Below, piece by piece: positions 13,646 through 40,227 of a DNA stretch of 41,116 bases (positions within the stretch are counted from its first letter, which is position 1; each line of letters begins with the position of its first letter). Source of the stretch: Negativicutes bacterium (GTDB taxonomy: Bacteria; Bacillota; Negativicutes; Sporomusales; JAOACF01); assembly GCA_026417995.1 (NCBI GenBank), contig JAOACF010000004.1:1-41116 (forward strand), in the 5' to 3' direction. A program made the translations under genes and the position numbers. The notes under the pieces are model-generated. The model searched no databases and was not told where the DNA came from. It saw nothing but the letters and a program-made list of their open reading frames with translations.

Positions 13646-14674
13646 TTACGTTTCATCCGGCGGGCTGCAGGATTGACGCACCACCAGCTCGGGTTCAAGT
13701 ATTACGGTTTGCGGATCAGCCTCCGAACCCTCAAGCCTAGCTTGCAAGAGGCGGGCCGCGTATGCGCCCATCATCCGGGTGCACGCCGAAACGGTCGTAA
13801 TCTTAGGGCTGAAGATCGCCGCTTCGGGAATATCGTCGAAGCCGACAATGGCGATATCTTTACCGGGAACCAGCCCCAGTTCGCGCATTTTCATCATGAC
13901 GCCGATCGCGATTGTGTCGTTATAGCAGAAAGCGGCGGTAGGCAGCGGGGATACTTTAAGCAGCTTTTGAATCACTTCAATGCCGCCCTCGCGTGTGGCC
14001 GGGCTTTCAAATACAAGAGAGTTGTCGACTGTCAGGCCTGCGGCAAGGTGGGCGCTGTCAAAGCCTTGTTTGCGTCCCTGCCAGGAGGATAGCTTGGAAT
14101 AGCCGCCCAGAAAGGCAATGCTGCGGTGCCCTTTTTTTATCAAATATTCGGCGGCAATTTGCCCGCCCTTCACATTATCTATGCCCACATAATCGCATTC
14201 CGCTCCCCGGAGTGTTCTGTTCACCAAAACTACCGGAATATCCCGGCTTAAGATCCGGTTAACCGTTTCGCTGTCGCTGCCGGGGGCCGCCGACAAGATG
14301 ATGCCGCCAACCCGGTGCTCGAGCATGGTAGACAACAGGCGTTCCTGAATCGCCGGCGAATCGAATGTCGTCCCCAGAATTACCGTTTTGCCGAACTTGT
14401 CCAGTTCCTGGTGGATACCTACCAGTAATTCGGAATAAAACGGGTTGGCAAGCTCCATAATGATCAGGCCAACCGTCGTTGAGTCCCGGGAACGCAGATT
14501 GGCGGCGATCCGATCATAAACATAACCAAGCTCCTGCATCGATGCCAGCACCTTATCGCGGGTAGCTTTGGCGATATTCGGGCTGCCGCGCAGAGCCAGC
14601 GAAGCGGTCGCGCGCGACACGCCGGCATGCTCGGCGACATCCAGCAATGTAACATGGCGCTTTTTTTGTTTCAA
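13646..14674 (-). CDS. LacI-family transcriptional regulator
   Basis: VTLLDVAEHAGVSRATASLAL HTH, A..LR hinge and VGFDD. Likely TTG start at 14674 after SD AGGTGA; the ORF track starts at 14683. Confidence 0.92.
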   Translation of the reverse strand: MKQKKRHVTLLDVAEHAGVSRATASLALRGSPNIAKATRDKVLASMQELGYVYDRIAANLRSRDSTTVGLIIMELANPFYSELLVGIHQELDKFGKTVILGTTFDSPAIQERLLSTMLEHRVGGIILSAAPGSDSETVNRILSRDIPVVLVNRTLRGAECDYVGIDNVKGGQIAAEYLIKKGHRSIAFLGGYSKLSSWQGRKQGFDSAHLAAGLTVDNSLVFESPATREGGIEVIQKLLKVSPLPTAAFCYNDTIAIGVMMKMRELGLVPGKDIAIVGFDDIPEAAIFSPKITTVSACTRMMGAYAARLLQARLEGSEADPQTVILEPELVVRQSCSPPDET

Positions 14675-14847
14675 TATAATCACCTAATTCATAAGGCTGA
14701 TAACCAACAGGATTTTCAGATAATTACAAACCAATTATATAATACCACAGGTATTGTTAACAATCATGCTAATTTGCCGAATTTTAGAAACAAAATTCGG
14801 CATAATATGTGAAAAAAATCACTTAATCTGAATAATCAGAAATTAGC

Positions 14848-14876
14848 TTGACAAGAAGAAAAAAGGCGACTATACT
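14848..14876 (+). promoter_or_regulatory. Strong sigmaA promoter of the dehydrogenase-TRAP operon
   Basis: TTGACA, 17 bp spacer, TATACT. Confidence 0.85.
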
Positions 14877-14882
14877 TCTTTT

Positions 14883-14907
14883 TAGATCGATCTATTAAAT
14901 CGATCTA
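14883..14907. promoter_or_regulatory. Tandem palindromic operator, probably bound by LacI
   Basis: TAGATCGATCTA (14883-14894, perfect) and TAAATCGATCTA (14896-14907). Both have a central CG and lie at the predicted +1. Confidence 0.7.
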
Positions 14908-15001
14908 AAAAAGAAAACGTGAAATCGATGCGGCAGGAGGGGGGGCGGAAAACGTCTGCATCGAGATTATATAGTCGAAGTAAAAAACGCACTAAAAGCA
15001 G

Positions 15002-15997
15002 GTGATCACAACGTTCGAGTTATATTTGGATAGGCCTGACGAACTGAAGCTGAGAGAAGCTGCGCCGCTTCCAGCCTTGCAAGCTAACGAGGTTAAACTT
15101 AAAGTGATCTATGGCGGAATATGCGGTTCAGATCTTAGGGTCTATAAGGGATTAATCAGCTATGCAAAGTACCCGATCCGGCCCGGGCATGAAGTATTGG
15201 GCGTCATCGTCGAAGCCGGCTCTGCCGTTTCCTATCCGGTCGGTACAAGGGTTGCGGTTTTCCCCAATACGTTTTGCGGAACCTGTGAGTTCTGCCAGAG
15301 CGGCAAGACCAATATCTGTAAGCACAAACAGCCGCTGGGGGTAGCAATTGACGGCGTTTTTGCCCAGGAAGTCGTGCTTGAGGCAAAGTACGTTGTTCCG
15401 GTGCCTGATGCGATGGCTAATGAACGGGCAATACTGATCGAACCATTCGCCGTAACTGTCCATGCCCTTAAAAAAGCCAATATCACCAAAGGAACTACGG
15501 TTGCCATTGTAGGCGGCGGGACGGAAGGTTTGCTGTCGGTTGCCCTGGCGCTTCATTTAGGCGCCGCAGTAACCGTAATCGACATTAATCCGGCCAAGTT
15601 GGCACTGGCGAAAAAGCTCGGCAATGTTGCTGCGCTGCAGCCGCATGAAGTTAAAGATCAGGTGTTTGACGTAGTCGTCGAAGCGGCTGGCGTAAAAGCG
15701 GCAATTGAACAGGCCATGCAGCTTGTCAAACCTGGCGGCGCCATGATTGCGCTGGGCATTACCGGAGATCCTGTCAATCTATATCCGATTCACATTGTCC
15801 GCAGCGAGATAACCATCTATGGGACAATTATCTATACGCTGAAGGATTTTGCCGCTGCCATTCAATATCTCAACGATCCCGCTTTTTACGTTGACCCGAT
15901 TGTATCAATGATTGTTCCTTATACTGGCTACCGGCAGGCTTTTGCCGACGCGCTTTCGGGAAAGTACGCCAAAATCGTGCTGGACTTTCAGGACTAA
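15002..15997 (+). CDS. Zn-dependent medium-chain dehydrogenase (copy 1)
   Basis: CGSD, GHE, a structural-Zn CxxCxxCx7C motif, EP and a Rossmann GGGTEG. The start codon is uncertain (GTG 15002 or ACG 15011). Confidence 0.88.
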   Translation: MITTFELYLDRPDELKLREAAPLPALQANEVKLKVIYGGICGSDLRVYKGLISYAKYPIRPGHEVLGVIVEAGSAVSYPVGTRVAVFPNTFCGTCEFCQSGKTNICKHKQPLGVAIDGVFAQEVVLEAKYVVPVPDAMANERAILIEPFAVTVHALKKANITKGTTVAIVGGGTEGLLSVALALHLGAAVTVIDINPAKLALAKKLGNVAALQPHEVKDQVFDVVVEAAGVKAAIEQAMQLVKPGGAMIALGITGDPVNLYPIHIVRSEITIYGTIIYTLKDFAAAIQYLNDPAFYVDPIVSMIVPYTGYRQAFADALSGKYAKIVLDFQD

Positions 15998-16048
15998 GTT
16001 TTTTGAAGTAGAGCTATTAGCTAAAATTTGCGAGAGGGGCAAGAAGAA

Positions 16049-17065
16049 GTGAAAAAAGTATTGAGTTTAATCAGTTTAGTGTTAATTGCCGGTCTGGTGC
16101 TTGCCGGCTGCTCCGGGCAAAAAGACGCAGGGGAGAAAAAAGCCGGTCCCAAGGTTATGAAATTAGGCATTGTTACCAACAAAGACAGGTCGCTTACCAA
16201 GGGTCTCGTTAAATTTGCCGAAATTGTCGAAAAAGAAACAGGCGGTTCAATTAAAGCCGAGGTGTTTGCCGACGGCGTCCTGGGCGGTGACCGCCAGGTA
16301 ATTGAAGCGCTACAGATGGGAACTGTTCACGGAACTGCGGTATCCACCGGCGTAGTCGCTGCATTTGCCCCGCGCTTTGACGCATTCGACCTGCCGTTCC
16401 TGTTCAAGGACAAGCAGACCGCCTTCAAGGTGTTTGACGGCCCGATCGGGCAAGAGGTGCTCGGCGATCTTCCCAAGGCCAAGCTGATTGGTCTGGCGTA
16501 CTGGGAAAACGGGTTCAGGCATCTGACCAATAATAAACGGGAAGTAAAAACTGCCGAAGATATTAAGGGTCTCAAAATCCGCACCCTGGAAAGCAAGGTT
16601 CACGTCGAGGCTTGGAAAACCTTAGGCGCAAATCCTACACCGATGTCCTTCTCCCAGCTTTACACCGCGCTGGAGCAGAGCGTTGTTGACGGACAGGAAA
16701 ACCCGTACGGCAACGTTGTGGCCAGCAAATTCAACGAAGTGCAAAAATACCTGACCAACACCGGCCACATTTATAACGCCAATGTATTCTTAGTAAGCAA
16801 GCCTTTCTGGGATTCCCTCACCGAGAAAGAGCGTGAAGCCATTAAGAAGGCAGCAATCGAAGCCAGAGATTATCAGCGTCAATTGAATGAAAAAGAAGAT
16901 CAAGACAGTGTCGCCATTCTGAAAGAAAAAGGCATGAAAATAACCGATCTTAATCCGGGCGAAAAAGAAAAAATGCAGCAGATGCTGCAGCCGCTCTACC
17001 AGCAAGTTGCGAAAACGGTTGGTGGCGATTTGGTCGACCGCATTGTAGCCGCAACCAAGCAATAG
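16049..17065 (+). CDS. dctP: TRAP transporter substrate-binding lipoprotein
   Basis: Lipobox LAGC, NGFR, GLKIR and VDGQENP. GTG at 16049 follows SD GAGAGGGG. Confidence 0.92.
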   Translation: MKKVLSLISLVLIAGLVLAGCSGQKDAGEKKAGPKVMKLGIVTNKDRSLTKGLVKFAEIVEKETGGSIKAEVFADGVLGGDRQVIEALQMGTVHGTAVSTGVVAAFAPRFDAFDLPFLFKDKQTAFKVFDGPIGQEVLGDLPKAKLIGLAYWENGFRHLTNNKREVKTAEDIKGLKIRTLESKVHVEAWKTLGANPTPMSFSQLYTALEQSVVDGQENPYGNVVASKFNEVQKYLTNTGHIYNANVFLVSKPFWDSLTEKEREAIKKAAIEARDYQRQLNEKEDQDSVAILKEKGMKITDLNPGEKEKMQQMLQPLYQQVAKTVGGDLVDRIVAATKQ

Positions 17066-17228: not shown

Positions 17229-17786
17229 ATGAAACAGCTACAGCAAGCAGAGAGCCTGGTAGAGAAGTTGTTTAGCGCTGTGATGGCAGTTTTTTTGGCG
17301 CTCATGGGCATCTTCATTTTCGGCAATGTATTCTTGCGCTACTTCTTCAATTCCGGGATTACCTGGGCGGAAGAAATGTCCCGGTTTCTCTTTGTCTGGA
17401 TTGTTTTTATGGGCGCCATCGGGGCGCTGAAAGATAATAACCATCTTGGATTTACTTCTTTAGTGCAGAAACTGCCCCCTCTCCCGAAGAAAATCTGCTT
17501 CATTATCAGCAATCTCCTCGTTTTAAGCTGTTTAGGGATATTTCTCGAAGGCAGCATCATGATGACATCAATGACGACAGATACTCTTTCGCCGGCAACC
17601 GGTCTGCCGCTGGCGTTCATGTACGGCATTGGCATTATCTCCAGCATCGGCATGGGAATAGTGGTTTGCTACAATTTGTACAAGGCTATTTTTGTCAAAG
17701 GCGCGATTGATAAATTGGTCATTTTGAAGGAATCGGAGGACGAGGTCGCAATGGAGCAGCAAGCTAAGGAAGAGGTGAAAGCATGA
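17229..17786 (+). CDS. dctQ: TRAP transporter small permease
   Basis: NVFLRY, WAEE.SR and H.G motifs; about 4 TM segments. Confidence 0.9.
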   Translation: MKQLQQAESLVEKLFSAVMAVFLALMGIFIFGNVFLRYFFNSGITWAEEMSRFLFVWIVFMGAIGALKDNNHLGFTSLVQKLPPLPKKICFIISNLLVLSCLGIFLEGSIMMTSMTTDTLSPATGLPLAFMYGIGIISSIGMGIVVCYNLYKAIFVKGAIDKLVILKESEDEVAMEQQAKEEVKA

Positions 17787-19063
17787 CAGTCGCTGTATTT
17801 ATTTTGTCGCTCTGCGGCGCCATGGCGCTCGGGATGCCTATCGCTTTTGCCCTGCTTTTAAGCGGTGTGGCTCTGATGCTCCAGCTCGGCATGTTTGATG
17901 CCCGCATCTTGACCCAAAACCTGATCATTGGCTCGGACAGCTTTGCGCTTATGGCTATTCCCTTCTTTATTCTTGTTGGTGAATTAATGAATGCCGGCGG
18001 CATTTCCAAGCGAATTATCAATTTTGGTTTGGCCCTTGTCGGTCATATCCGCGGCGGCTTGGGTTATGTGGCAATTATGACGGCGTTTATCTTTGCCGGC
18101 TTGTCCGGCTCGGCCGTTGCCGATACGGCTGCTTTAGCCGCAATCATGGTGCCGATGATGGCCGATGCCGGCTACGAAAAAAGCCGCTCGGCGGCGCTGA
18201 TTGGCTCAGGCTCCATTGTAGCGCCGATTTTGCCGCCCAGTATTCCGTTCATTATCTTCGGCTCGATCAGCGGCGTGTCGATCATGAAGCTGTTCATGGC
18301 CGGCCTTCTGCCGGGGGCGATGATAGCCGTTAGTTTGGCGATTACGTGGTGGTATATGGCCAGAAAGAAAAATGTAAAAGTATATCCGCGTAAATCTTTC
18401 AAAGAAATTCTGATTGCCACTAAAGAAGCAAGCTGGGCGCTTGCTCTGCCTATTCTTATCATGGTTGGCATCAAAGGCGGCGTCGTTACCCCGACCGAAG
18501 CGGCTGTAGCTGCAGTTTTTTATACTTTGTTCCTTTGTTTTGTGGTTTATCGCCAACTGACATTTAAGGATCTGACCAAAATTCTCATTTCCGCAGCGAA
18601 AACGACAAGCGTCATTATGTTCTTGATTGCGGCTGCCATGGTTTCGTCCTGGCTGATTGCCATTGCCAATATTCCGGCGTCTATCGCTTCCTGGCTGGAG
18701 CCGTACATGGGCAGCAAAATCCTGTTAATGATAGCCATCAACATTCTCGTATTTATTGTCGGCACAGCGATGGACTTAACGCCCACGGTTCTGATTTTAA
18801 CACCGGTCCTTATGCCGATTATCACTAAGGCTGGCATTGATCCGGTATACTTTGGCGTCGTATTTATCCTGAACAATGCGATCGGCCTCTTGACACCGCC
18901 GGTGGGAACAGTGCTCAATGCAGCATGCGGGGCAGGCAAGGTGCTGATGGATGACCTCATGCGGGATGTTATGCCCTTCCTGATCGTTGAGACCATTGTG
19001 TTAATACTGTTAATTTTGTTCCCCGATATTGTGCTTGTACCGCTTAAATGGATGTTAGGCTAA
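17783..19063 (+). CDS. dctM: TRAP transporter large permease
   Basis: AIPFF, SGSAVAD, PPSIP, TPTEA and GLLTPPVG. Confidence 0.93.
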   Translation: MTVAVFILSLCGAMALGMPIAFALLLSGVALMLQLGMFDARILTQNLIIGSDSFALMAIPFFILVGELMNAGGISKRIINFGLALVGHIRGGLGYVAIMTAFIFAGLSGSAVADTAALAAIMVPMMADAGYEKSRSAALIGSGSIVAPILPPSIPFIIFGSISGVSIMKLFMAGLLPGAMIAVSLAITWWYMARKKNVKVYPRKSFKEILIATKEASWALALPILIMVGIKGGVVTPTEAAVAAVFYTLFLCFVVYRQLTFKDLTKILISAAKTTSVIMFLIAAAMVSSWLIAIANIPASIASWLEPYMGSKILLMIAINILVFIVGTAMDLTPTVLILTPVLMPIITKAGIDPVYFGVVFILNNAIGLLTPPVGTVLNAACGAGKVLMDDLMRDVMPFLIVETIVLILLILFPDIVLVPLKWMLG

Positions 19064-19325: not shown

Positions 19326-20252
19326 ATGACTCTGCAGCAATTAAAATGTTTTCTTGTTATGGCTGAAGTGCTTCATTATACCAAGGCTGCAAACCAACTT
19401 TACATCTCGCAACCGAGCCTTAGCTATGCACTTTCCGAATTAGAAAAGGAACTAGGGGTGCCGCTCTTTGAGAGAAGGGGCAATCGCACTTGCATTACAA
19501 AATACGGTGAGAGTTTCATACCATATGTAAGGCAGATTTTCATGACACTGGATGATGCCACAGCGCGCTTGTACGAAATGCTTGATGCATCAAGTGGGAA
19601 AATCAGCCTTGGCTACATATATAGCATCAGTTTTGATTTTGTTCCGAGGATACTTGAGATGTTCTATGCTGACGCAGGAAACAGTCGGATTACCTTTGAT
19701 TTTTTCCAAGGTTTGCACTATGCGATGATTGAGAAGTTAAAATCCGCCGATCTAGATCTGATACTCTCTGCCGACCCCAATGACAAAACCATTATGGGTG
19801 TTCCGGTCTTTAGTCAGGAGCTCTTCGTAATTGTTCCCGAGGATCATCGCCTAGCCAGACGAGAAGAAGTATCCCTTGCGGATGTAAAGGATGAGCCGCT
19901 GATAACCATTGGTGGCACAGCCAGTAACATCCGCAACCACCTTGTCAAATGCTATGAAAAAATTGGTGCAAGGCCGATAATCGCGGGAGAGGTAGCCGAG
20001 TGCATTGCTATGTCCGCTTTAGTCAGGGCGAAACTTGGAATTGCCGTAACGCCATTATCTCCTACTTTCGAAGGAGGAGGCCTCAAGGTACTGCGTTTTC
20101 GGAAAGAGGAACGTGACGCAATGAAGCGTAAAATCTATCTGCTGTGGCTCAAGGACCGCCAACTTGAACCTTCTGCCAAGCGTTTCCGCGATTTCATTTT
20201 AAATAACGCAGCCAATTATAAACCTAACGAAGGAAGCAAGTTCGGCATATAG
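19326..20252 (+). CDS. LysR-family regulator
   Basis: HYTKAANQLYISQPSLS..LEKELGVPLFER. Confidence 0.92.
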   Translation: MTLQQLKCFLVMAEVLHYTKAANQLYISQPSLSYALSELEKELGVPLFERRGNRTCITKYGESFIPYVRQIFMTLDDATARLYEMLDASSGKISLGYIYSISFDFVPRILEMFYADAGNSRITFDFFQGLHYAMIEKLKSADLDLILSADPNDKTIMGVPVFSQELFVIVPEDHRLARREEVSLADVKDEPLITIGGTASNIRNHLVKCYEKIGARPIIAGEVAECIAMSALVRAKLGIAVTPLSPTFEGGGLKVLRFRKEERDAMKRKIYLLWLKDRQLEPSAKRFRDFILNNAANYKPNEGSKFGI

Positions 20253-20365
20253 TCTACCATACGGTGTCAAAGGCCTGAAACAATTAAGCTCTGAATGTAC
20301 CCCTGATGTTGGGCGCTGTTTTATAGCTGTGTCTAATATTGGGGGTATATTTCTTTTTAACTATA

Positions 20366-20489
20366 GGAGACTGCTGCAAAAGTCCATCTGCGTTGTTGCT
20401 CCTGCGGGTTTTCGCTCCAACGTACCTCCAGTACGCCTCCGCGAAAATCCTCGTCGCGCCTAGCATCTGGAGCTTTTTCAGCAGTCTCC
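20366..20489. mobile_element. 124-bp MITE/REP-like palindromic element
   Basis: Terminal inverted repeats ggagactgctg(c)aaaag / ctttttcagcagtctcc. Nested internal stems ttttcgc/gcgaaaa and cgtac/gtacg. GC-rich within an AT-rich spacer. Confidence 0.65.
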
Positions 20490-20614
20490 GCTTCTAATTA
20501 TTTATCGAAATTATTACTAAAAAATGAATTTTGTAACATACACATAGAAGTTTTCGGTGATTTTCCAATTAGTTTTGCCCTGCACTGCACCATCAATGAA
20601 TGTGGGACTGCTAA

Positions 20615-20629
20615 ATAGAAAGCTTCTAT
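20615..20629. promoter_or_regulatory. LysR recognition box upstream of the racemase-transketolase operon
   Basis: ATAG-N7-CTAT (T-N11-A) dyad. Confidence 0.6.
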
Positions 20630-20744
20630 AGGGGTATAAAAAAGGATTATTTCCTTTTTTCATGCGGCGCTTTTATACTGAAAGCAAAAAATATCCGCAA
20701 ATGAAAAAGTTGAAAACATTCGGAAGCACGGAGGGGGAATTTCT

Positions 20745-21431
20745 ATGGAGTATAAGAAGCACATCGTTGTATTACAGACAAGCTTTGCTAAGAGAGAAGA
20801 CACTATTGCCTACCTTGAAAAGCATTTACCGGGAATCCGTATAGATTTTATTACGGACAGTTCGTTACTGTCAGATGTTCGTCAAGCGGGTGAACCGACT
20901 CAGCCTGTGATTCAGCGCATGGTGCTCTATGCAATGGCGGCTGAAGCCATGGGCGCAGATTTGATCCTTAATTCTTGCTCCACGGTGGGAGAGGTCGCGG
21001 ATTTTTACGCAAGCGTGGTATCTGTGCCGGTGGTAAAAATAGATGATCCAATGGCCAAGCAAGCAGCAGAGATTGGCGGCAAAATAGCATTGATCGCGAC
21101 TCTTCCCACCGCATTGGGGCCAAGCCGGCGAGCTATTGAGCGATATGGCAGAAAGATGGGCCGTGAGATTAAATTTACGGAATTAATCGACCAGTCCGCA
21201 TGGGAAGCTCTTTCTGCGGGGGACAGTAAGCGGCACAATGAGATACTTATCGCAAGTATCCGCAAACTGGATGCGCAGGGCTATGACGCCATAGTTATGG
21301 CCCAGGTCAGTATGCGGGCGCTCCTGCCTGATTTAACGGGGGTAAAGACACCGGTATTATGCAGTTTCTACACAGGTTTGGATGCAGTCATCGAGAAAGT
21401 CAAGAAGATGTGCGAAGAAGATCATAAGTAG
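20745..21431 (+). CDS. Asp/Glu/hydantoin racemase superfamily protein
   Basis: GADLILNSCSTVG, VPVVKIDDPM, IALIAT and DAIVMAQVSM. Only the first catalytic Cys is present. Confidence 0.75.
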   Translation: MEYKKHIVVLQTSFAKREDTIAYLEKHLPGIRIDFITDSSLLSDVRQAGEPTQPVIQRMVLYAMAAEAMGADLILNSCSTVGEVADFYASVVSVPVVKIDDPMAKQAAEIGGKIALIATLPTALGPSRRAIERYGRKMGREIKFTELIDQSAWEALSAGDSKRHNEILIASIRKLDAQGYDAIVMAQVSMRALLPDLTGVKTPVLCSFYTGLDAVIEKVKKMCEEDHK

Positions 21432-21447
21432 ACAAAGGAGAAATACA

Positions 21448-28593: not shown

Positions 28594-28633
28594 TAAAAGA
28601 TAAGTCTGAGCAATTGCTCAGACTTATCTTTTA
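28594..28633. terminator. Perfect 40-bp palindrome acting as a bidirectional terminator
   Basis: taaaagataagtctgagcaa|ttgctcagacttatctttta. Includes the lysR stop codon. Confidence 0.85.
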
Positions 28634-30927: not shown

Positions 30928-30947
30928 TTCACTAATAAATAAATGAA

Positions 30948-31217: not shown

Positions 31218-31351
31218 ATTTATAGTATTTGGAGGATGGTAGCATGGTAAAATTAACAGTGATGGCCAATCAGAAGTTTGTCCGGAAACCGATAGGGATG
31301 CCCTATTTGGCCGGAGCGCTTCAGCAACTTGCAGCAAATGAGAGGAAGGCA

Positions 31352-31894
31352 ATGAACAACATTATTCTCATCGGCTTTATGGGGACGGGTAAAACCACTA
31401 CCGGCAAGATTCTTGCCTCACGTCTCAACCGGAAATTTATTGATGTGGATGAAGAAATAGAATTGGCTTGCGGCATGAGTGTAAATGAAATTTTCAGCGT
31501 ACATGGCGAGCCTTTTTTCCGCGAACAGGAAAAGTACGCCATTGAACGGGTAATGAAGCACAGCAACGCGGTGATCGCCACCGGTGGCGGAGCGGTGCTT
31601 GCTGCTGACAATGTCGCCAATTTAAAGCGCGACAGCATGATAATTGCTTTACAAGCAGCGCCTGAGGTAATCTTGCGCCGGCTCGAGCAGTGCAACATTC
31701 CCCGGCCGCTGTTAAATAAGCCGGACAGATTGCAAGTCATTGTGAAAATGCTGGCAGACCGTGCGCCCAAATATCAGATAGCCGATCTTTATGTAGATAC
31801 CAACACGCGAACCCCCTGGGAGGTATCGCAAATTATCATTGATAACTTGCGCTTGCGGGAGAAAGCGCACCGCAAGGTGTCGGCCCATAGCTAA
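31352..31894 (+). CDS. aroK: Shikimate kinase (copy 2); alternative in-frame start at 31244
   Basis: MNNIILIGFMGTGKTT, GEPFFREQE, ATGGG and RPLL. Confidence 0.9.
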   Translation: MNNIILIGFMGTGKTTTGKILASRLNRKFIDVDEEIELACGMSVNEIFSVHGEPFFREQEKYAIERVMKHSNAVIATGGGAVLAADNVANLKRDSMIIALQAAPEVILRRLEQCNIPRPLLNKPDRLQVIVKMLADRAPKYQIADLYVDTNTRTPWEVSQIIIDNLRLREKAHRKVSAHS

Positions 31895-32972: not shown

Positions 32973-33941
32973 ATGGCTGCCGTGCGATACATCTCTCTTC
33001 CAGGCCTGGAACTAAAGTGCTCGCAGATTGTGCTGGGGACTTCGGCATTTACACCGGAGCGGAAGCAGGCCGTCTTCGGGATTTTGGATGCATATAGAGA
33101 AGCCGGCGGGAATGTTTTAGATACTTCCCGCATTTACGGCGCGGGCAAGAGCGAAGCGGTACTCGCCATGTGGCTGCAAGAGCGGCATAACCGGCAGGAG
33201 ATGATTGTCATCAATAAAGGCTGTCACCACTTTGTCGATGAGCAAGGCCGCCATTACCCGGAAAAGCATAGAGTGAAGCCGGAGATTATTACTGCTGATC
33301 TAAAAGAAAGTTTGGAACGCATGAATCTGGACTATTTTGATATTTATTTGCTGCACCGGGATGATCAGGAAGTTCCCGTAGCTGATTTGATGGATGTGCT
33401 GGAGCTGCATCGCCGGGAAGGGCGGATTAAAACGTACGGCGTTTCCAACTGGAGCACCGCGCGCATTGCCGCGGCCAATGAATACGCCGCCGGCAAAGGA
33501 TATTCAGGCATTGTTGTCAATAGTCCAAGCTTAAGCTTGGCCGTTATTAACGAGCCGCGCTGGGAAGGATGCACATATGTTGACCGTGCGTACGCCCGCT
33601 GGCACGAGGAGCGCCAACTGGCGCTGTTTTCCTGGGCATCACAGGCTAGCGGTTTTTTCACCGGGCTATATACACGCGACCATTGCCCGAACCCGGACAT
33701 TGCCAGGGTGTATTACAATGAAACAAACTGGGAGCGCTTGGAGCGCGCCCGTTCTTTGGCGAAACAAAAAGGCGACGCCATTACCGCCAATCATATCGCT
33801 TTAGCCTATGTTCTGCAGCAGCCTTTTCCTACAGGCGCGGTGATAGGGCCGCAGACGCCCGGGGAATTGATTGACAGTCTTACCGCGCTAGACATCGACT
33901 TAAGCGAGCAGGAGAGAATATGGCTCGAATTCAACTGTTAG
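32973..33941 (+). CDS. Aldo/keto reductase
   Basis: DTSRIYG (Asp/Tyr), NKG (Lys), LLHRD (His) and GVSNWS. Confidence 0.88.
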   Translation: MAAVRYISLPGLELKCSQIVLGTSAFTPERKQAVFGILDAYREAGGNVLDTSRIYGAGKSEAVLAMWLQERHNRQEMIVINKGCHHFVDEQGRHYPEKHRVKPEIITADLKESLERMNLDYFDIYLLHRDDQEVPVADLMDVLELHRREGRIKTYGVSNWSTARIAAANEYAAGKGYSGIVVNSPSLSLAVINEPRWEGCTYVDRAYARWHEERQLALFSWASQASGFFTGLYTRDHCPNPDIARVYYNETNWERLERARSLAKQKGDAITANHIALAYVLQQPFPTGAVIGPQTPGELIDSLTALDIDLSEQERIWLEFNC

Positions 33942-34063: not shown

Positions 34064-35113
34064 ATGGTGTCAGGGAAAAAACTATTCAGTTTGTTAGCGC
34101 TTATGGTGTTTGCCGGCATACTGGTACTCGGCTGCGGCGGACAGAAGAAAGAAGCAGGGTCAAAGACGGCAGGCGGCTACCCGGCAAATAACATCAACGG
34201 TATAATTACCTGGGGTGCCGGCGGCGTCATGGACAATGTTTCCCGCTCCATCACACCGATGGTCGAAAAGGAACTGGGCAAAAGCATTATTCTCGCCAAC
34301 AAGCCGGGCGCAACGGGCGCTATCGCCATGCAGTACGTTCACGACCAAAAAAATGACGGCTATACCTTGTTGTACGGTGCGGAAAACCCTCAGCTTTACA
34401 AAGTACTGGAGTTATCCAAACTTGATTATGACGATTTTGAGCCAATCATGCTGTTCGGCAAAGGCGTAGCGGTGCTTGTCGCCGAGAAGTCCTCGCCGCT
34501 TAACAGCTATGAAGATCTTGTCAAGGCCCTGAGGCAAAATGCCGGCAAATTCAATATGGGCGCAACCGGTGCCGGCGGTTTGCCGCAGGTGGCTACAGCG
34601 CTTATCCTCCAAAAGGAAAATGTGAAGGCAAACTTTGTCAATTATGACGGTGAAGGCCCAATGGTAACGGCGTTGCTGGGCAAGCAGGTAGACGCAGCAG
34701 CGATCAGCGTTGGGACAGTGGCCCAATATATAAGAACCGGCGATCTCAAAGCTTTGGCGTTAATCGCTAACTCCCCGGTGGACATCCTGCCTAACGTGCC
34801 GGTACTGGGCGAGATGAAGCCAGAGTATAAGGAGAGTTTGAAAACATTTGGTCCGTTCTACGGAGTATTTGTAAAGAAAGGAACGGCGGAAGACGTTATC
34901 AAACGGCTGAGCGAAGCCTTCGGCAAGGGTTATCAGGATCCCAAATTCCAGGAATTCATGAAGAAAAGCGGTATTATACCGCTGGGTATCAGCGGACAAG
35001 AGGCCAAACAGTATCTGGTAACCTGGCGTGCACAGCATTCCTGGTTGCTGCATGACATCGGCGCGGCCAAAATTTCGCCGGAAAGAGTCGGCATTCCCAG
35101 ACCGGGCAAATAG
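34064..35113 (+). CDS. tctC: Tripartite tricarboxylate transporter substrate-binding lipoprotein (copy 1)
   Basis: Lipobox LGC, WGAGG..D..SR, NKPGATG, DGYTLL and ALLGKQVD. Confidence 0.88.
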   Translation: MVSGKKLFSLLALMVFAGILVLGCGGQKKEAGSKTAGGYPANNINGIITWGAGGVMDNVSRSITPMVEKELGKSIILANKPGATGAIAMQYVHDQKNDGYTLLYGAENPQLYKVLELSKLDYDDFEPIMLFGKGVAVLVAEKSSPLNSYEDLVKALRQNAGKFNMGATGAGGLPQVATALILQKENVKANFVNYDGEGPMVTALLGKQVDAAAISVGTVAQYIRTGDLKALALIANSPVDILPNVPVLGEMKPEYKESLKTFGPFYGVFVKKGTAEDVIKRLSEAFGKGYQDPKFQEFMKKSGIIPLGISGQEAKQYLVTWRAQHSWLLHDIGAAKISPERVGIPRPGK

Positions 35114-35174: not shown

Positions 35175-35231
35175 GGCGCGTAAATATAAGCGCCAATTTT
35201 TCACAAACTCTGTTTGCGGCAGGAGGATTAT

Positions 35232-35987
35232 ATGAATCATTTAATTGGTAAAACAAAACAACCACTTGTTTGTACCCCTTTGGTCGCAAAAAGCAAACAG
35301 GCGATTTTACAGGAACTGAGAGAGGTCCTGATTAAAAAGCCCGATATTGTCGAGTGGCGGGCAGATTTCTTTGCAGCAATTGCAAATACCGCAGAGGTTG
35401 TTGCCGTTGCTAACAGTATTAAAGAGATTGCCGGCGAAATACCGGTTATTTTTACGATCCGCTCGCTGCGCGAAGGAGGCCAGCCGATACCGCTCACGGC
35501 TGAACAGGCAATCGAATTAAACATTGCCATTTGCCAAAATACTAAGATAGAATACGTCGATTGCGAGCTAAGCAATCTGCCTGCTCACATCGAGCGCCTG
35601 CAAAGCGCCGCGGCAGTCACCGGAACCAAGATCATCGGCTCCTATCACAATTTTAGTTTCACGCCTGAAAGGGAAGAACTGGCGCAAAAGTTTGCCGCCG
35701 CCGAAGCCTACCGGCTGGATGTAGCCAAAGTTGCCGTGATGCCGCAAAATCTGCAGGATGTGCTAACCATGCTGAGTGCAACGCTTGAAGCCAAAGCCAA
35801 GCATAAAATACCCCTGATTACAATGTCTATGGGCAAATATGGCGCAATCAGCCGGATGGTCGGCGGCGTTTTTGGCTCGTCGCTAACCTTTGGCGTGGGG
35901 TCTCAGGCGTCTGCGCCCGGGCAGGTGCCGATTGAAGATCTCAAGACGGTTCTAGCCATTGTGGAAAAAACGATAGGTGGCGAATAG
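35232..35987 (+). CDS. aroD: Type I 3-dehydroquinate dehydratase
   Basis: DIVEWRAD, FTIRS..EGG, SYHNF..TP, AKVAVMP, MSMG...ISR and SAPGQ. ATG at 35232 follows AGGAGG. Confidence 0.93.
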   Translation: MNHLIGKTKQPLVCTPLVAKSKQAILQELREVLIKKPDIVEWRADFFAAIANTAEVVAVANSIKEIAGEIPVIFTIRSLREGGQPIPLTAEQAIELNIAICQNTKIEYVDCELSNLPAHIERLQSAAAVTGTKIIGSYHNFSFTPEREELAQKFAAAEAYRLDVAKVAVMPQNLQDVLTMLSATLEAKAKHKIPLITMSMGKYGAISRMVGGVFGSSLTFGVGSQASAPGQVPIEDLKTVLAIVEKTIGGE

Positions 35988-35988: not shown

Positions 35989-36978
35989 ATGCAGGAACTA
36001 TATCTGGAAAAGCCCGGTGAGCTCACGCTGCGGGTAAGTTCGCCGCTCCCGGCGCCGCAAAGCAACGAAGTAAAAATCAAAATTTTATACGCGGGACTAT
36101 GTGGTTCTGATCTTCGGGTTTATAAAGGAAGCATTGCCTATGCAAAATACCCGTCCCGTCCCGGACATGAAGCGCTCGGTGTTGTCGTTGCGGCCGGAAG
36201 CGCCTCATCCTTAAAGGCCGGCGATAAAGTTGTCATTTTCCCCAATACCTTCTGCGGGCAATGTAAACTTTGCCGTCAGGGACAGACAAATATCTGCCGG
36301 GAAAAGAAGTCATTTGGCATTAATGCTCCGGGTGTATTTGGCAGTGAGGTTATTGCCGACGCCAAGTTTGTTGTAAAAATTCCTCAATATCTGCCGGATG
36401 AAAAGGCGGTTCTGGTCGAGCCGTTTGCCGTGACTGTGCATGCGCTCAAAAAAGCGGCGATCACTCCCGAAACAACGGTGGCAGTGGTAGGCTGCGGCAC
36501 AGAAGGATTGCTTGCAATAGCGCTGGCTAATTACCTCGGCGGCAAGATCACGGCAGTAGACATTAATCCGGCAAAGCTTCAAATGGCCAGAAGCTTCGGT
36601 GATATTCGCACATTGCTGCCGCAAGACGTTGAGGGAGAAGCGTTTGATGTTGTCATTGAGGCAGCTGGGGTGAAGCTGTCAATTGAGCAGGCAATGCGGT
36701 TGGTACGGCCGGGCGGCAGGTTGATTGTCATAGGGATTACGGGCGAGCAGGTTGATTTTCCGGTAATCCATGTCGTGCGCAACGAAATTACTATTTTTGG
36801 CACTATTATCTATACAATAGAAGATTTTAAGGATGCGATAACCTATTTGTCCGATCCGGCCTTTCCTGCTGATGGCGTATTGTCGAAAATAGTTCCTTAT
36901 ACTGAATTCAGCCAAGCTTATGCTGACGCCCTTTCAGGCAATTATGCCAAGATTGTGCTGGATTTTAGGGGAGCATAG
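35989..36978 (+). CDS. Zn-dependent medium-chain dehydrogenase (copy 2, paralog of 15002..15997)
   Basis: CGSDLRVYKG, RPGHE, CGQCKLC...C, EPFAVTVHALKKA and GCGTEG. ATG lies 1 nt after the aroD stop. Confidence 0.88.
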   Translation: MQELYLEKPGELTLRVSSPLPAPQSNEVKIKILYAGLCGSDLRVYKGSIAYAKYPSRPGHEALGVVVAAGSASSLKAGDKVVIFPNTFCGQCKLCRQGQTNICREKKSFGINAPGVFGSEVIADAKFVVKIPQYLPDEKAVLVEPFAVTVHALKKAAITPETTVAVVGCGTEGLLAIALANYLGGKITAVDINPAKLQMARSFGDIRTLLPQDVEGEAFDVVIEAAGVKLSIEQAMRLVRPGGRLIVIGITGEQVDFPVIHVVRNEITIFGTIIYTIEDFKDAITYLSDPAFPADGVLSKIVPYTEFSQAYADALSGNYAKIVLDFRGA

Positions 36979-37099: not shown

Positions 37100-38128
37100 A
37101 TGTCGAAAAAATTTGCCTGGGCAGTATTAGTTCTGGTGACGGTTGCTCTGATCGCAGCCGGCTGCGGCGGCACAACTGCCAAAAAAGATGCCTTCCCGAC
37201 AACTAACATTAACGGTACGATTGCCTGGGGCGCCGGCGGCGGCACTGACAACGTCATGCGTACCCTTGCGCCGATTGCTGAGAAGCAACTTGGCAAATCA
37301 ATCGTTCTCTCTAACAAGCCCGGCGCGGCCGGTGCTATTGCTACCCAGTATGTTTATGACCAAAAAGCCGACGGTTACAACCTGCTCATGAATGCGGAAA
37401 ATCCGCAGCTCTATCAGATCCTCGGCCTTTCCAAGCTGTCTTATAACGACTTTGAGCCTATTTTGCTGGCAGTTCAAGGTTCTACCGTTATTGTCGTACC
37501 GAAAGATTCTCCGTATAAAACGCTTGATGACCTCCTCAAGGCGGCAAAAGCCAACCCCGGCAAACTGACCATCGGTATCAGCGGTGTTGGCGGCCAGCCT
37601 TACGTGACTGCTGCTATCCTGAAAAAGGTGGAGGGTGTAACCTTTAACCCCGTAACTTTTGACGGCGACGGCCCGCTGGTGACCGCACTTCTTGGCAAGC
37701 AGCTCGACGTTACCGGCTTGGCTGTCGGTGCGGCCACTCAGTACATTAAAAACGGCGACCTGCGGGCGCTGGCCGTAATGGCTACCAAGCAAAATCCCGC
37801 TATCCCTGAAGTTCCGGCAATCACCCAACTGAATCCCGCTTACCAGGATGTGCTGAAAGCCTCGGGCTTCTTCTATGGCGTATGGGTTAAGAAGGGTACG
37901 CCGGAAGACGTTATCAAGAAATTGACTGATGCGTACATGGTAGCGTACAAAGATCCTAAATTCCAGGAATATGCGCAAAAGAACGGCTTGACGCTGATGG
38001 GGCTCACCGACAAGGAAGCAAAAGACTTTGCCGCTCAGTGGCAATCGCAAATGGCCTGGCTGATTTATGAGGCCGGCGGCGCAAAAGAATCGCCCGAGAA
38101 GTTTAACATTCCGAAACCCGCGAAGTAA
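37100..38128 (+). CDS. tctC: TTT substrate-binding lipoprotein (copy 2)
   Basis: Lipobox AAGC, WGAGGGTD..MR, NKPGAAG and DGYNLL. Confidence 0.88.
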   Translation: MSKKFAWAVLVLVTVALIAAGCGGTTAKKDAFPTTNINGTIAWGAGGGTDNVMRTLAPIAEKQLGKSIVLSNKPGAAGAIATQYVYDQKADGYNLLMNAENPQLYQILGLSKLSYNDFEPILLAVQGSTVIVVPKDSPYKTLDDLLKAAKANPGKLTIGISGVGGQPYVTAAILKKVEGVTFNPVTFDGDGPLVTALLGKQLDVTGLAVGAATQYIKNGDLRALAVMATKQNPAIPEVPAITQLNPAYQDVLKASGFFYGVWVKKGTPEDVIKKLTDAYMVAYKDPKFQEYAQKNGLTLMGLTDKEAKDFAAQWQSQMAWLIYEAGGAKESPEKFNIPKPAK

Positions 38129-38135
38129 AGAGCGC

Positions 38136-38162
38136 GAGGGAGGAACCTCAAGTTCCTCCCTT
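38136..38162 (+). repeat. Intercistronic hairpin after tctC2
   Basis: gagggaggaac-ctcaa-gttcctccctt. Confidence 0.65.
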
Positions 38163-38196
38163 AATTATCGATTTTGTTTGAACGGAGGGCCAAAGC

Positions 38197-38691
38197 ATGT
38201 CCGAACTGCCACAAGCACAAACCGCCCACACGCCAAAGGGGAAACCGCAGAAAAAAGGCGAGCTTAAGATGCTTGCTCTCCTCTTTGTCATTTTCGGGGC
38301 CTTGTTTCTTGATTCGCTGCGCCTTGACGGCGCGTTTCAGGGACACTACAGCGGCCCCGGCGGGATACCCCAACTGGTTTCCGCCTTGATGCTTGTATTA
38401 ATAGTTGTTGCTGCCGTCAATCTGCTCAGACAGGGGTATAAAGAGGGGACATTCCAAGACATTGTTACATTCTTGTTTGATAAGGACGTAGTAATCCTGC
38501 TGATTATGGTCACGTTATACGGATTGCTGGTGGAAACGCTGACCTTTATTCCTACCAGTATCCTCTTTCTTGTCGGCACAATGTACCTCCTGGAACGCAA
38601 AAACCTGATCAGGAAGATTGTAATTTCCGTGAGCACGGTAGCTGTATTGGTACTGATCTTTTCAACGATCTTCCAGGTCGTACTGCCTTAG
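38197..38691 (+). CDS. tctB: TTT small membrane subunit
   Basis: 164 aa hydrophobic protein with GPG.IP and a C-terminal F.V.LP, between tctC and tctA. Confidence 0.85.
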   Translation: MSELPQAQTAHTPKGKPQKKGELKMLALLFVIFGALFLDSLRLDGAFQGHYSGPGGIPQLVSALMLVLIVVAAVNLLRQGYKEGTFQDIVTFLFDKDVVILLIMVTLYGLLVETLTFIPTSILFLVGTMYLLERKNLIRKIVISVSTVAVLVLIFSTIFQVVLP

Positions 38692-38712
38692 CGGGGAAGG
38701 AGGAAACACACG

Positions 38713-40227
38713 ATGTTTAATGGTTTGGAAGGGTTTTTAATACCGCTCACAAGTCTGGAACTCATCGCATACATTGCTGCCGGGGTTTTTGTCGGCATTT
38801 ATGTCGGCGCTATTCCCGGCCTGTCGGTAACTATGGCAGTATCGCTGTTGATTTCGTTCACCTTCTCCTGGGATGTTCTCCCGGCGCTGTGCGTAATGAT
38901 CGGTATCTTCAGCGGCGGCGTTTATGGCGGCGCCCGTTCGGGTATTTTGCTCAATATCCCCGGCGCGCCGGCAGCGGTGGCATCAGGCTTTGACGGCTAT
39001 CCGCTGGCAAAGATGGGCCTTGCCGGCGAAGCCATGGGGCTTAGCACTACCCAGGCAGTAATCGGCGAATTCTTCGGTATTATCATCCTCTGCCTGTTCG
39101 CCCCGCTGATCGCCAAGCTGTCCATTCTCTTTATGCCGCGCGATTATTTCCTGCTGGCCTTTATGGGCATGTTTCTGGTCGGCAGCTTAACTGAAGGCGG
39201 CTCCTTAATCAAGGCAATGATTACTGCCGGTCTCGGCATTCTCGTAGGCCTTATCGGCATGGATCCCGAGACGGGGCAAGGCCGCATGCACTTTGACACC
39301 GGCTATCTGCTCGGCGGCATCAATTTCGTAATTGTTATGATCGGGACCTTCGGCATTTCCGAAGCGCTGGTGCAACTGCAGGACAAAGTGGAGCCGGTAA
39401 AGCAGCAGGTTACCCGTATCCGTCCCACCTGGGAGGTTATTGCCAAAAACATCCCTCTTACGCTGCGATCATCGACGATTGGCGTTATTATCGGCGCTCT
39501 GCCGGGGACAGGCGGCGATATTGCCGCGCTGATGGCCTATGACCATGCTAAGCGGACGGTTAAGAATCCGCATCCCAAGCCGTTCGGTCAAGGCGCCTAT
39601 CAAGGTCTGATTGCGCCTGAGTCCGCCTGCAGCGCGGCGATCGGCGGCGCTATCATCCCGATGATGACGCTGGGTATCCCTGGCGACGCGGTAACGGCGG
39701 TGCTGATTGGCGCATTGATTATCCACGGCTTGCGTCCCGGCCCCATGTTGATGCGCGAACAGCCTGAATTCTTTTGGGTTCTGGTCGGGGCACTGTTTGT
39801 CTCAAATATTTTCCTGTATATCTTTGGTATGACCGGTATCCGCATCTTTACCAAAATCGTGGAAATTCCCAAATCGGTGCTTATTCCGATAATTGTCGTA
39901 TTGACAATTATCGGCGGCTATTCCATCCAAAACAGCATCGCCGATATTTACTGGATGATCGGCTTCGGTATTTTAGGCTATTTCTTAAAGCGGTATAATT
40001 ACCCGATCGCGGCGATGGTGCTTGGGGTTATTCTCAGCCCGATCATTGATACCAACTTCCGGCGGGGGGTAGCGATGGAGCACGGCAGTGTGTCGGCATT
40101 CTTCGGCAACATGCTTACCAGTCCGATTTCGCTCACACTAATCTTCATCATGGTTGCTACTGCTTTTATGCAGAGCTCCTATTATGACAAAATTTCCGAT
40201 AAATTGTTCAAGCGCACAAATAAATGA
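38713..40227 (+). CDS. tctA: TTT large membrane subunit
   Basis: GAIPGL, NIPGAPA, DGYP, GALPGTGG, TLGIPG and GLRPGP. Confidence 0.92.
   Translation: MFNGLEGFLIPLTSLELIAYIAAGVFVGIYVGAIPGLSVTMAVSLLISFTFSWDVLPALCVMIGIFSGGVYGGARSGILLNIPGAPAAVASGFDGYPLAKMGLAGEAMGLSTTQAVIGEFFGIIILCLFAPLIAKLSILFMPRDYFLLAFMGMFLVGSLTEGGSLIKAMITAGLGILVGLIGMDPETGQGRMHFDTGYLLGGINFVIVMIGTFGISEALVQLQDKVEPVKQQVTRIRPTWEVIAKNIPLTLRSSTIGVIIGALPGTGGDIAALMAYDHAKRTVKNPHPKPFGQGAYQGLIAPESACSAAIGGAIIPMMTLGIPGDAVTAVLIGALIIHGLRPGPMLMREQPEFFWVLVGALFVSNIFLYIFGMTGIRIFTKIVEIPKSVLIPIIVVLTIIGGYSIQNSIADIYWMIGFGILGYFLKRYNYPIAAMVLGVILSPIIDTNFRRGVAMEHGSVSAFFGNMLTSPISLTLIFIMVATAFMQSSYYDKISDKLFKRTNK

Follow-up and report, generated by a model that had tools for sequence, protein, structure and literature searches.

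Genomic evidence for a candidate oxygen-independent route of quinate and shikimate degradation that bypasses protocatechuate

A predicted ring-opening route for hydroaromatic acids

The window studied here is a 41,116-nucleotide stretch of a Negativicutes bacterium (GenBank assembly GCA_026417995.1, contig JAOACF010000004.1, positions 1 to 41,116), and its part between positions 13646 and 40227 had been read, from the letters alone, as a dispersed island consistent with the anaerobic use of quinate and shikimate (the original prediction). Our analysis suggests that the window holds, in three pieces, an oxygen-independent quinate/shikimate pathway that bypasses protocatechuate, a reading to which we give a probability of roughly 0.6. 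The assignment of quinate and shikimate as the substrates is fairly secure; for the detailed chemistry the odds are slightly better than even, and we infer every substrate and product of the route. Few plant acids reach soils, sediments and guts in larger amounts than quinate and shikimate, whether in free form or derived from chlorogenic acids. To our knowledge, every assigned bacterial route for their use runs via protocatechuate, and we know of no genes assigned to a fermentative hydroaromatic route without aromatic intermediates. Brune and Schink reportedly described, in 1992, fermenting specialists that avoid aromatic intermediates. The genes of a non-aromatic ring-opening route appear never to have been assigned before. 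A search of full-text literature (subscription journals were not covered, and prior publication is possible) returned no description of a pathway of this kind and no mention of 'homocitryl-CoA'.

In the proposed route, the two acids would be taken up by one TRAP system, a second copy of which lies on contig C187, and by one TTT system with two binding proteins. Either of two paralogous Zn-dependent medium-chain dehydrogenases, MDR1 or MDR2, would oxidise C3 to give 3-dehydroquinate or 3-dehydroshikimate, and the type I 3-dehydroquinate dehydratase AroD would interconvert these products, both substrates meeting at 3-dehydroquinate. Running in the hydration direction, AroD would feed shikimate-derived dehydroshikimate into the route, which would explain the presence of AroD in a catabolic operon. 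The compound at this branch point carries a ketone at C3, hydroxyls at C4 and C5 and a tertiary hydroxy-acid at C1. A xylose-isomerase-like TIM barrel may act on its saturated ring by an IolE/AsbF-type beta-elimination of the C5 hydroxyl, yielding 1-hydroxy-3,4-dioxocyclohexane-1-carboxylate. A thiamine diphosphate (ThDP) enzyme would then cleave C3-C4 hydrolytically to homocitrate semialdehyde, OHC-CH2-C(OH)(COO-)-CH2-CH2-COO-, which a CoA-acylating aldehyde dehydrogenase (ALDH) would convert to homocitryl-CoA. In the last step, an HMGL-like lyase, i.e. one resembling 3-hydroxy-3-methylglutaryl-CoA (HMG-CoA) lyase, is predicted to split homocitryl-CoA by a retro-Claisen reaction into acetyl-CoA and 2-oxoglutarate. 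HMG-CoA and citryl-CoA, the known substrates of the two lyases that alternate in the clusters described below, bracket homocitryl-CoA structurally. Each conserved gene is used once in this bookkeeping and none is left over, and the sum, quinate + H2O -> acetate + 2-oxoglutarate + 4 [H], balances mass and redox. The chances are about even that this is a widespread, unnamed pathway of Negativicutes, Bacillaceae, Beta-, Gamma- and Alphaproteobacteria, Desulfobacterota and Phycisphaerales, in which two new enzymes, a dehydratase and a ThDP-dependent dione hydrolase, open the ring at the 3-dehydroquinate stage and homocitryl-CoA ends as acetyl-CoA and 2-oxoglutarate.

Three gene modules in the window

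Gene identities were taken from Pfam and NCBIfam scans of selected window open reading frames (ORFs) of at least 100 aa. In the first module, a LacI-family repressor gene (13646-14683, minus strand; Pfam LacI and Peripla_BP_3) is divergent from the gene for MDR1 (15002-15997, plus strand; ADH_N and ADH_zinc_N), which is followed on the same strand by the TRAP transporter genes for DctP (16028-17065), DctQ (17229-17786) and DctM (17783-19063), all identified by Pfam. The second module, the ring-cleavage operon, lies on the plus strand and encodes the HMGL-like lyase (23432-24373; PF00682), the ThDP enzyme of the acetolactate-synthase superfamily (24525-26303; TPP_enzyme_N, M and C), the TIM barrel (26316-27137; PF01261) and the CoA-acylating ALDH (27174-28586; assigned by NCBIfam scores). 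The third, also on the plus strand, encodes an aldo/keto reductase (AKR; 32973-33941, PF00248), the solute-binding protein TctC1 (34064-35113; PF03401), AroD (35214-35987; TIGR01093 and PF01487), MDR2 (35989-36978) and, by Pfam, TctC2 (37100-38128), TctB (38197-38691) and TctA (38713-40227). It is closed by an intrinsic terminator (40238-40263, plus strand) with an 11-pair stem, 8 of the pairs being G-C, and a T run, and a LysR-family regulator gene (31955-32848, minus strand; Pfam) is divergent from its AKR end. An ORF listed at 40224-40628 overlaps this strong terminator, is without a family match and is probably non-coding.

This layout agrees with the original prediction, which had placed aroD inside a transport operon and 1 nt from a Zn-dehydrogenase gene; the operon has the order AKR-TctC-aroD-MDR-TctC-TctBA, the AroD stop codon TAG occupies 35985-35987 and the MDR2 ATG starts at 35989. 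The close paralog said to head the LacI/TRAP operon is MDR1, 61.5% identical to MDR2 over 325 residues, and the lyase/ThDP/TIM-barrel/acylating-ALDH operon plus a further aroK are located between the two dehydrogenase operons. Likewise, no dioxygenase, UbiD or benzoyl-CoA-pathway family was found among the scanned window ORFs.

The modules form one cluster in related genomes

The original prediction implied that the ThDP enzyme, TIM barrel, MDR, AroD and AroE should be found together in other genomes, and they are, both in genomes of the same order and across phyla. Eight of the 40 same-order genomes searched carry a ThDP ortholog of 82-88% identity. We fetched about 20 kb around nine ThDP loci of same-order genomes, four of which have the order LacI<>MDR-DctPQM-HMGL-ThDP-TIM-ALDH and one the order AroD-MDR-ThDP-TIM-ALDH. 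AroD lies inside the 20 kb in seven of the nine, and one locus has aroK-aroD next to LacI. The modules scattered over 27 kb in the window are thus one cluster in its kin.

A cross-phylum scan with one genome per species gave 519 relatives, of which the best 80 (ThDP enzyme 72-86% identical) were kept. These loci come from Sporomusa, Anaerospora, Pelosinus, Candidatus Formimonas, Priestia, Domibacillus, Brevibacillus, Aneurinibacillus and Sporosarcina, and further from Casimicrobiaceae, Aromatoleum, Accumulibacter, Rhodoferax, Propionivibrio, Steroidobacter, Desulfobacterota, Rhodospirillales and a metagenome-assembled genome of Phycisphaerales. Neighbours were scored by tblastn, using the window proteins and representatives of the commonest unassigned neighbour families, and were counted within 10 kb of the ThDP gene in the 60 loci of at least 15 kb, with the 20 shorter loci excluded. 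The TIM barrel is present in 52 of the 60 loci and adjoins the ThDP gene in most. Some ALDH is present in 55, as the acylating type in 42 and as a non-acylating type in 16 (13 of them with a family III CoA-transferase). A dehydroquinase was found in 43 loci, type I (AroD) in 26 and type II (AroQ) in 18, with both in a single locus; for the dehydrogenases the counts are 20 for MDR and 26 for an AroE-like gene, again with one locus having both. A lyase is present in 49 loci, HMGL-like in 24 and citryl-CoA-lyase-like in 25, and the two never occur together. Carriers of the TRAP, TTT or MFS type are encoded in 43 of the 60. Overall, AroD, AroQ or AroE occurs in 47/60 loci, compared with a few per cent for random 20 kb, a baseline that is an estimate and not a computed control. 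A frequent ORF beside the ThDP gene ('unk343') has no Pfam family and was resolved by tblastn as an antisense shadow of the citryl-CoA-lyase-like gene.

The alternation of genes within a slot is informative on the intermediates. The AroE-like neighbour scores 278 bits on TIGR00507 and thereby passes the aroE equivalog cut-off of 200, the citrate-synthase-like neighbour scores 374 bits on NF004864 'citryl-CoA lyase' (cut-off 261), and the type II dehydroquinase neighbour matches PF01220. Because two unrelated dehydroquinase folds, which share only that reaction, fill one slot, dehydroquinate and dehydroshikimate are very probably true intermediates. By the same logic, the replacement of MDR by an AroE-like gene that passes the aroE cut-off points to MDR1 (or MDR2) as a quinate/shikimate 3-dehydrogenase. 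A citryl-CoA-like substrate would suit the slot filled by either of two unrelated lyases, both of which act on 3-hydroxy-3-substituted acyl-CoA. The alternative pair of non-acylating ALDH and CoA-transferase fits the oxidation of an aldehyde on the way to a CoA thioester, for which the free tricarboxylate (homocitrate) is an allowed intermediate.

The original prediction had spoken of anaerobic hydroaromatic use without aromatic intermediates. The gene linkage across genomes supports this use, but not its confinement to anaerobes: since aerobes and denitrifiers (Priestia, Brevibacillus, Aromatoleum and Steroidobacter) are among the carriers, the route is better described as oxygen-independent than as 'anaerobic'. 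A circumstantial link to organisms known to use hydroaromatics is provided by Propionivibrio, which contributes two of the 80 loci, with AroD, ALDH, HMGL, ThDP, TIM and TRAP or TTT genes. Within the genus, an ortholog of the ThDP gene (67-74% identity) was found in 23 of 54 genomes. One of these has three copies, a pair of which lie on the same contig within 12 kb, and could mark a hydroaromatic specialist.

Many proteobacterial clusters contain a further gene, on the opposite strand beside an IclR regulator, for a 410-aa TIM-barrel protein that weakly resembles the N-terminal half of QuiC (124 bits). It was seen in 19 of the 60 loci and may represent either a side branch through dehydroshikimate dehydratase or an additional enzyme of the pathway; no homolog at above 50% coverage was found in the genome that contains the window.

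Enzymes of the ring-cleavage operon

The ThDP enzyme probably starts 5 codons after the listed start, because its database orthologs have 587 aa. It scores under all NCBIfam cut-offs, reaching 438 bits on the acetolactate synthase model (below cut-off). Its 258.5 bits on the IolD model TIGR04377 (window 24579-26243; cut-off 715) indicate a relation at superfamily level only, and its score against cyclohexane-1,2-dione hydrolase is 194 bits. Within the acetolactate-synthase superfamily, the enzyme belongs to a distinct clade that is very conserved: orthologs from at least 80 loci in several phyla are 72-88% identical to it. Among the best 120 of 7980 matches, all source names are generic ('thiamine pyrophosphate-binding protein', 'acetolactate synthase'). 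From its place in the clusters, we infer that it is the ring-opening 1,2-dione hydrolase.

The TIM barrel matches no NCBIfam family, the QuiC model (NF042435) included, and its sequence matches in the PDB are IolI and Lmo2234 only, AsbF and QuiC1 not being among them. A structure model built from 42 sequences reached a pLDDT of 96.4. Its nearest folds by TMq are Lmo2234 (0.82), IolI (0.80), QuiC1 (5hmq; 0.76-0.78), AsbF (3dx5; 0.72) and IolE (0.65), together with STM4435. Across the 42 sequences, residues E135, D165 and E240 do not vary, and H191 is retained in 37; we take these four to be the usual metal-ligand positions of the xylose-isomerase-like fold. The modelled fold and these residues fit a metal-dependent enolisation or elimination on a dehydroquinate-like ring, which makes the protein a candidate 3-dehydroquinate dehydratase forming the 3,4-dione.

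The ALDH reaches 476.2 bits on NF047625 (acylating sulfoacetaldehyde dehydrogenase SauS), under the cut-off of 600, as well as 378 on the N-terminal half of AdhE and 346 on the EutE type; these scores suggest an enzyme of the CoA-acylating type that is not SauS. Its orthologs are 80-92% identical across phyla. The HMGL-like lyase scores 341.4 bits on NF004283, above the cut-off of 246, and its best solved relatives are HMG-CoA lyases. In the proposed route it would be a homocitryl-CoA lyase.

The same substrates and genes allow a second chemistry, in which the ThDP enzyme would cleave the alpha-hydroxyketone of 3-dehydroquinate directly as a retro-acyloin lyase, the TIM barrel would be an aldose-ketose isomerase or epimerase on the open chain, and the lyase would yield acetyl-CoA and a different 2-oxo acid. 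This best-surviving alternative is unlikely, and there is evidence on both sides. The inosose isomerase IolI and sugar epimerases give the best fold matches of the TIM barrel, carboligases and lyases of the acetolactate-synthase type are the nearest relatives of the ThDP enzyme, and the TIM barrel is missing within 10 kb in 8 of the 60 loci, all of which would suit it. However, a second aldehyde or ketol would be left without a conserved enzyme, as one ALDH slot is conserved, and the TIM fold is about equally close to the dehydratases QuiC1 and AsbF. We keep dehydration followed by hydrolytic cleavage as the preferred sequence of steps.

Uptake and oxidation genes

Orthologs of the LacI repressor (67-75% identity) occupy the same position in related clusters, and DctM orthologs, 82-88% identical, are located inside them. 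MDR1 scores under every NCBIfam cut-off. Both transporters are confirmed as members of their families, TRAP (DctP/Q/M) and TTT (TctA/B/C). TctC1 and TctC2 are about 50% identical to each other, and orthologs of TctC2 and TctA (67-76% identity) lie inside the ThDP clusters of four loci. AKR homologs (51-54% identity) were found in two related clusters. An MFS carrier gene (29653-30855, plus strand; Pfam MFS_1), which the original prediction did not mention, has a 63% identical ortholog, together with a LysR gene, beside the cluster of one locus (L018) only, and its membership in the pathway is uncertain.

The genome assembly comprises 2.65 Mb in 236 contigs and is 89% complete. At the start of its contig C187 (1-4086) lies a second MDR-DctPQM set, 66, 77, 69 and 89% identical to the window MDR, DctP, DctQ and DctM, respectively. 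The genome thus has three uptake/oxidation modules for a single ring-cleavage module. The C187 set is followed by metal-resistance-type genes (ArsR, P-type ATPase, ArsP-type permease, low-molecular-weight phosphatase and SBF carrier), and, as it sits at the contig edge, its regulator and upstream region are absent from the assembly.

A different carbocyclic or sugar acid, e.g. a cyclitol carboxylate or deoxy-inosose, could be the substrate if homologs of AroD, AroQ and AroE had been recruited to its degradation. In keeping with this, MDR, AKR, TIM barrel and ThDP enzyme are all under every curated family cut-off, GFO/IolG-like dehydrogenases occur in 8/60 loci, and the nearest solved relative of DctP binds sugar acids: the DctP model is closest to sugar-acid-binding DctPAm (7bbr), at 39% identity, and its fold search gave sugar-acid-binding relatives only, from which no ligand is inferred. 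We nevertheless consider it improbable, as two non-homologous dehydroquinase families alternate in the clusters (26 versus 18 loci, 1 with both), each above its family cut-off, which makes convergent recruitment unlikely, and as the AroE-like neighbour passes the aroE equivalog cut-off.

A putative LacI operator before uptake and ring-cleavage genes

The spacer between the LacI and MDR1 genes contains a TTGACA-17-TATACT promoter and, just downstream of it, two tandem palindromes, TAGATCGATCTA and TAAATCGATCTA, that share the core AGATCGATCT and form a putative LacI operator (14883-14907, strand not applicable). In the 1.48 Mb of the 80 related loci, this core 10-mer occurs 38 times, compared with about 1.4 occurrences expected at uniform base composition, and never within an assigned gene. 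It is found in 16 of the 19 loci with LacI but in only 3 of the 61 loci without LacI. In the LacI-bearing loci, it stands 24-140 nt upstream of MDR, ThDP, HMGL, ALDH, non-acylating ALDH, TIM and TctC genes, and several loci have one copy ahead of the uptake genes and another ahead of the ring-cleavage genes. Because operator copies stand before both gene sets, one regulator would thus tie the uptake and ring-cleavage modules together in Negativicutes and Bacillaceae.

An operator common to the three operons of the window was looked for and rejected, the LacI palindrome being present before MDR1 only and not before the HMGL or AKR operons; the whole genome has two copies of the core, the one at MDR1 and one other. 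Since the operator stands only before MDR1, the ring-cleavage and Tct operons of the window would be under other control, perhaps that of the adjacent LysR proteins. One such protein is encoded next to the ALDH gene (28631-29524, minus strand; Pfam), was not mentioned in the original prediction, and has orthologs, 69-75% identical, beside ALDH in two loci, L018 among them; it possibly regulates the ring-cleavage operon or the MFS gene.

The linkage of the genes also bears on the classical aromatic route, in which the TIM barrel would be a 3-dehydroshikimate dehydratase forming protocatechuate and the ThDP, ALDH and lyase genes would serve something else: the likeness of its fold to QuiC1 and AsbF and the separate 410-aa QuiC-like TIM barrel of 19/60 loci would agree with it, but the window TIM barrel lacks an NCBIfam match (QuiC model included), no protocatechuate dioxygenase, decarboxylase or CoA-ligase family is present among the scanned window ORFs, and the TIM barrel adjoins the ThDP gene in most loci, in the same LacI operator regulon, so that we regard it as very improbable.

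Evidence that weighs against the route

Several points weigh against the route proposed here, whose steps are all argued from genomic evidence. First, the ThDP enzyme scores higher on acetolactate synthases and glyoxylate carboligase than on cyclohexane-1,2-dione hydrolase; the hydrolase chemistry is not indicated by its sequence, and this step draws on genomic context. Second, the IolE model TIGR04379 (cut-off 290 bits) does not match the TIM barrel at E <= 0.01; in the window it matches only a hydroxypyruvate-isomerase-like gene at 6010-6792 (26 bits). Judged by its best folds, those of the isomerase IolI and the uncharacterised protein Lmo2234, the TIM barrel could be an isomerase. Third, 13 of the 60 loci are without AroD, AroQ or AroE in the 10 kb and 11 have neither lyase, and the kin are not independent, as horizontal block transfer inflates the co-occurrence counts. 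The restriction of the operator to the MDR1 operon in the window counts on the same side. Fourth, an AroE-type domain was not found in the 89%-complete genome, and aroD is the sole dehydroquinase found there, neither a second type I nor any type II enzyme having been detected. In four of five relatives the copy beside the cluster is likewise the only type I copy, and two of those five are without a type II enzyme. The position of aroD could therefore partly reflect biosynthesis.

AroD, AroK and aromatic biosynthesis

AroD is a clear member of its family, with 211.4 bits on TIGR01093 (cut-off 139.3) and 228.9 bits on PF01487. Its reading as a catabolic gene stands in so far as it lies inside a transport operon, and has to be widened in that the only dehydroquinase found in the genome probably also serves biosynthesis. 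In the five relatives tested, AroE is present elsewhere in the genome, in one copy each.

The second shikimate kinase gene of the window, aroK (31229-31894, plus strand; PF01202), scores 144.7 bits on PF01202 (cut-off 22.1) and is best matched among equivalogs by NF010553 (184.7 bits, under the cut-off of 204); its true start is probably later than the listed TTG. The genome has three shikimate kinases, the others being at 2501-3067 in the window and beside chorismate synthase on contig C196. Directly 5' of aroK lies a T-box leader (30944-31194, plus strand; RF00230, 109.6 bits versus a threshold of 93, E 1.7e-23) with a terminator at 31179-31209 and a Tyr (UAC) specifier. Its specifier stretch, GAAAUACACC, recurs unchanged in the T-box ahead of a 433-aa class-Ib (Trp/Tyr) synthetase gene on contig C58. 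Three synthetase leaders of this genome served to calibrate the reading register, which gives UUC for the leader of pheS and AUC for that of a 954-aa Ile/Leu/Val-type synthetase gene. Because a Tyr-type T-box with a UAC specifier precedes it, aroK would be switched on by uncharged tRNA-Tyr, i.e. it would answer to amino-acid supply rather than to the substrate, and it probably salvages imported shikimate for aromatic amino acids under tyrosine shortage. The proposal that aroK diverts carbon to biosynthesis is thus supported by its leader, with the amendment that the gene is not part of the catabolic regulon. In six loci of other carriers that were searched, no T-box was found near the aroK-like genes.

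It is hardly credible that aroD-MDR2 (and aroK) are plain biosynthetic shikimate genes, with MDR standing in for a missing AroE and the island not being catabolic: aroD as the only dehydroquinase found, the AroE not found, the Tyr T-box of aroK and the aromatic biosynthesis genes at the window start would agree with it, but the genome is only 89% complete and all five relatives have one AroE elsewhere, aroD and MDR2 are set among solute-binding proteins and a TTT permease under a LysR regulator, and MDR orthologs elsewhere lie in LacI-controlled uptake/ring-cleavage clusters.

Other genes of the window

A block that the original prediction left unmentioned, comprising a LysR gene (19326-20252) and an Asp/Glu-racemase-like gene with a split transketolase (20745-23228), sits between the TRAP and ring-cleavage operons, which adjoin each other in relatives. 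The racemase-like and transketolase genes were considered as pathway members and set aside, as they have no homologs at above 60% coverage in the 9 and 80 related loci; none of the genes at 19326-23228, LysR included, has a counterpart in any related cluster examined. The racemase-like gene shows a weak likeness to the cysteate racemase CuyB (19 bits).

Upstream of the LacI gene, the window starts with aromatic amino-acid genes (1-3067), namely a chorismate-binding enzyme (truncated at the window edge), a glutamine amidotransferase, a prephenate dehydratase with an ACT domain and the first shikimate kinase. They are followed at 3191-9849 by a LysR gene divergent from five genes, for a glyoxylate-carboligase-like ThDP enzyme, a hydroxypyruvate isomerase, a 3-hydroxyisobutyrate-dehydrogenase-type reductase, a small cupin and a lactate/glycolate-type permease. 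This is seemingly a glyoxylate/glycolate utilisation cluster, unrelated to the hydroaromatic genes. Its ThDP/TIM pair (4324-6792) was considered as a second copy of the ring-cleavage module and rejected, the two proteins being glyoxylate-carboligase-like (656 bits, under the cut-off of 791) and a hydroxypyruvate isomerase (374 bits versus 353). The stretch 9982-13539 contains phosphofructokinase (PFK) and, at 11320-13539, a cobalamin riboswitch (RF00174, 72.6 bits) ahead of a gene for a doubled or fused CobT, a protein of 658 aa in which DBI_PRT (CobT) stretches occur several times.

Implications

If the proposed route is true, it would account for the fermentative use of hydroaromatic acids in which no aromatic intermediate is formed. 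The analysis narrows this question to six enzymes in cultivable carriers, among them Anaerospora hongkongensis DSM 15969, Pelosinus baikalensis, Priestia abyssalis and P. endophytica, Aromatoleum diolicum 22Lin, A. tolulyticum and Steroidobacter agaridevorans. Should its chemistry hold, a very conserved and misnamed 'acetolactate synthase-like' family would gain a function and two new enzyme activities would be added. It would also change how metagenomes are read for hydroaromatic turnover and for the formation of hippurate and benzoate from dietary quinate.

Comparison with known systems

The classical pathway of quinate/shikimate catabolism consists of quinate/shikimate dehydrogenase, dehydroquinase and the dehydroshikimate dehydratase QuiC, QsuB or AsbF, followed by protocatechuate cleavage. 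The route proposed here would share with it the oxidation at C3, the interconversion of dehydroquinate and dehydroshikimate and a third enzyme with a xylose-isomerase-like TIM fold. It differs in that the window TIM barrel has no match to the QuiC family and that ThDP, ALDH and lyase genes replace those for protocatechuate cleavage or decarboxylation. Among the scanned window ORFs, no dehydroshikimate dehydratase or ring-cleavage genes of the protocatechuate branch were found; the search for pca genes did not extend beyond the window.

A closer parallel in logic is myo-inositol catabolism, which in Bacillus subtilis (iol) proceeds through the IolG, IolE, IolD and IolA steps. Both routes would be oxygen-free and use NAD oxidation to a ketone, dehydration to a 1,2-dione by a PF01261 TIM barrel, ThDP-dependent hydrolytic cleavage to an aldehyde-acid and, later, a CoA-acylating ALDH. 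However, the proteins are not orthologs, the ThDP enzyme having 258.5 bits against the IolD cut-off of 715 and the TIM barrel no IolE match, and the dehydrogenase here is MDR or AroE-like rather than IolG. The predicted route is also without a kinase/aldolase stage and has a CoA-ester lyase as its last enzyme, and its substrate bears a carboxylate and a tertiary alcohol.

IolD and cyclohexane-1,2-dione hydrolase both carry out ThDP-dependent hydrolytic C-C cleavage. The latter enzyme (PDB 2pgn, from a denitrifying Azoarcus/Aromatoleum strain) belongs to the same ThDP superfamily as the window enzyme and, under anoxic conditions, turns an alicyclic 1,2-dione into an omega-oxo acid by ring opening, but the two proteins are distant (194 bits). 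In Aromatoleum diolicum 22Lin, a separate, 74%-identical ortholog of the window ThDP enzyme lies beside IclR, citryl-CoA-lyase-like, AroE-like and AroD genes.

The last step is comparable to the chemistry of citryl-CoA lyase, HMG-CoA lyase and homocitrate synthase, in that a retro-Claisen reaction of a 3-hydroxy-3-substituted acyl-CoA would give acetyl-CoA and a 2-oxo acid, and both lyases of the clusters belong to these families. The difference from citryl-CoA lyase lies in the substrate, the predicted homocitryl-CoA being one CH2 longer than citryl-CoA.

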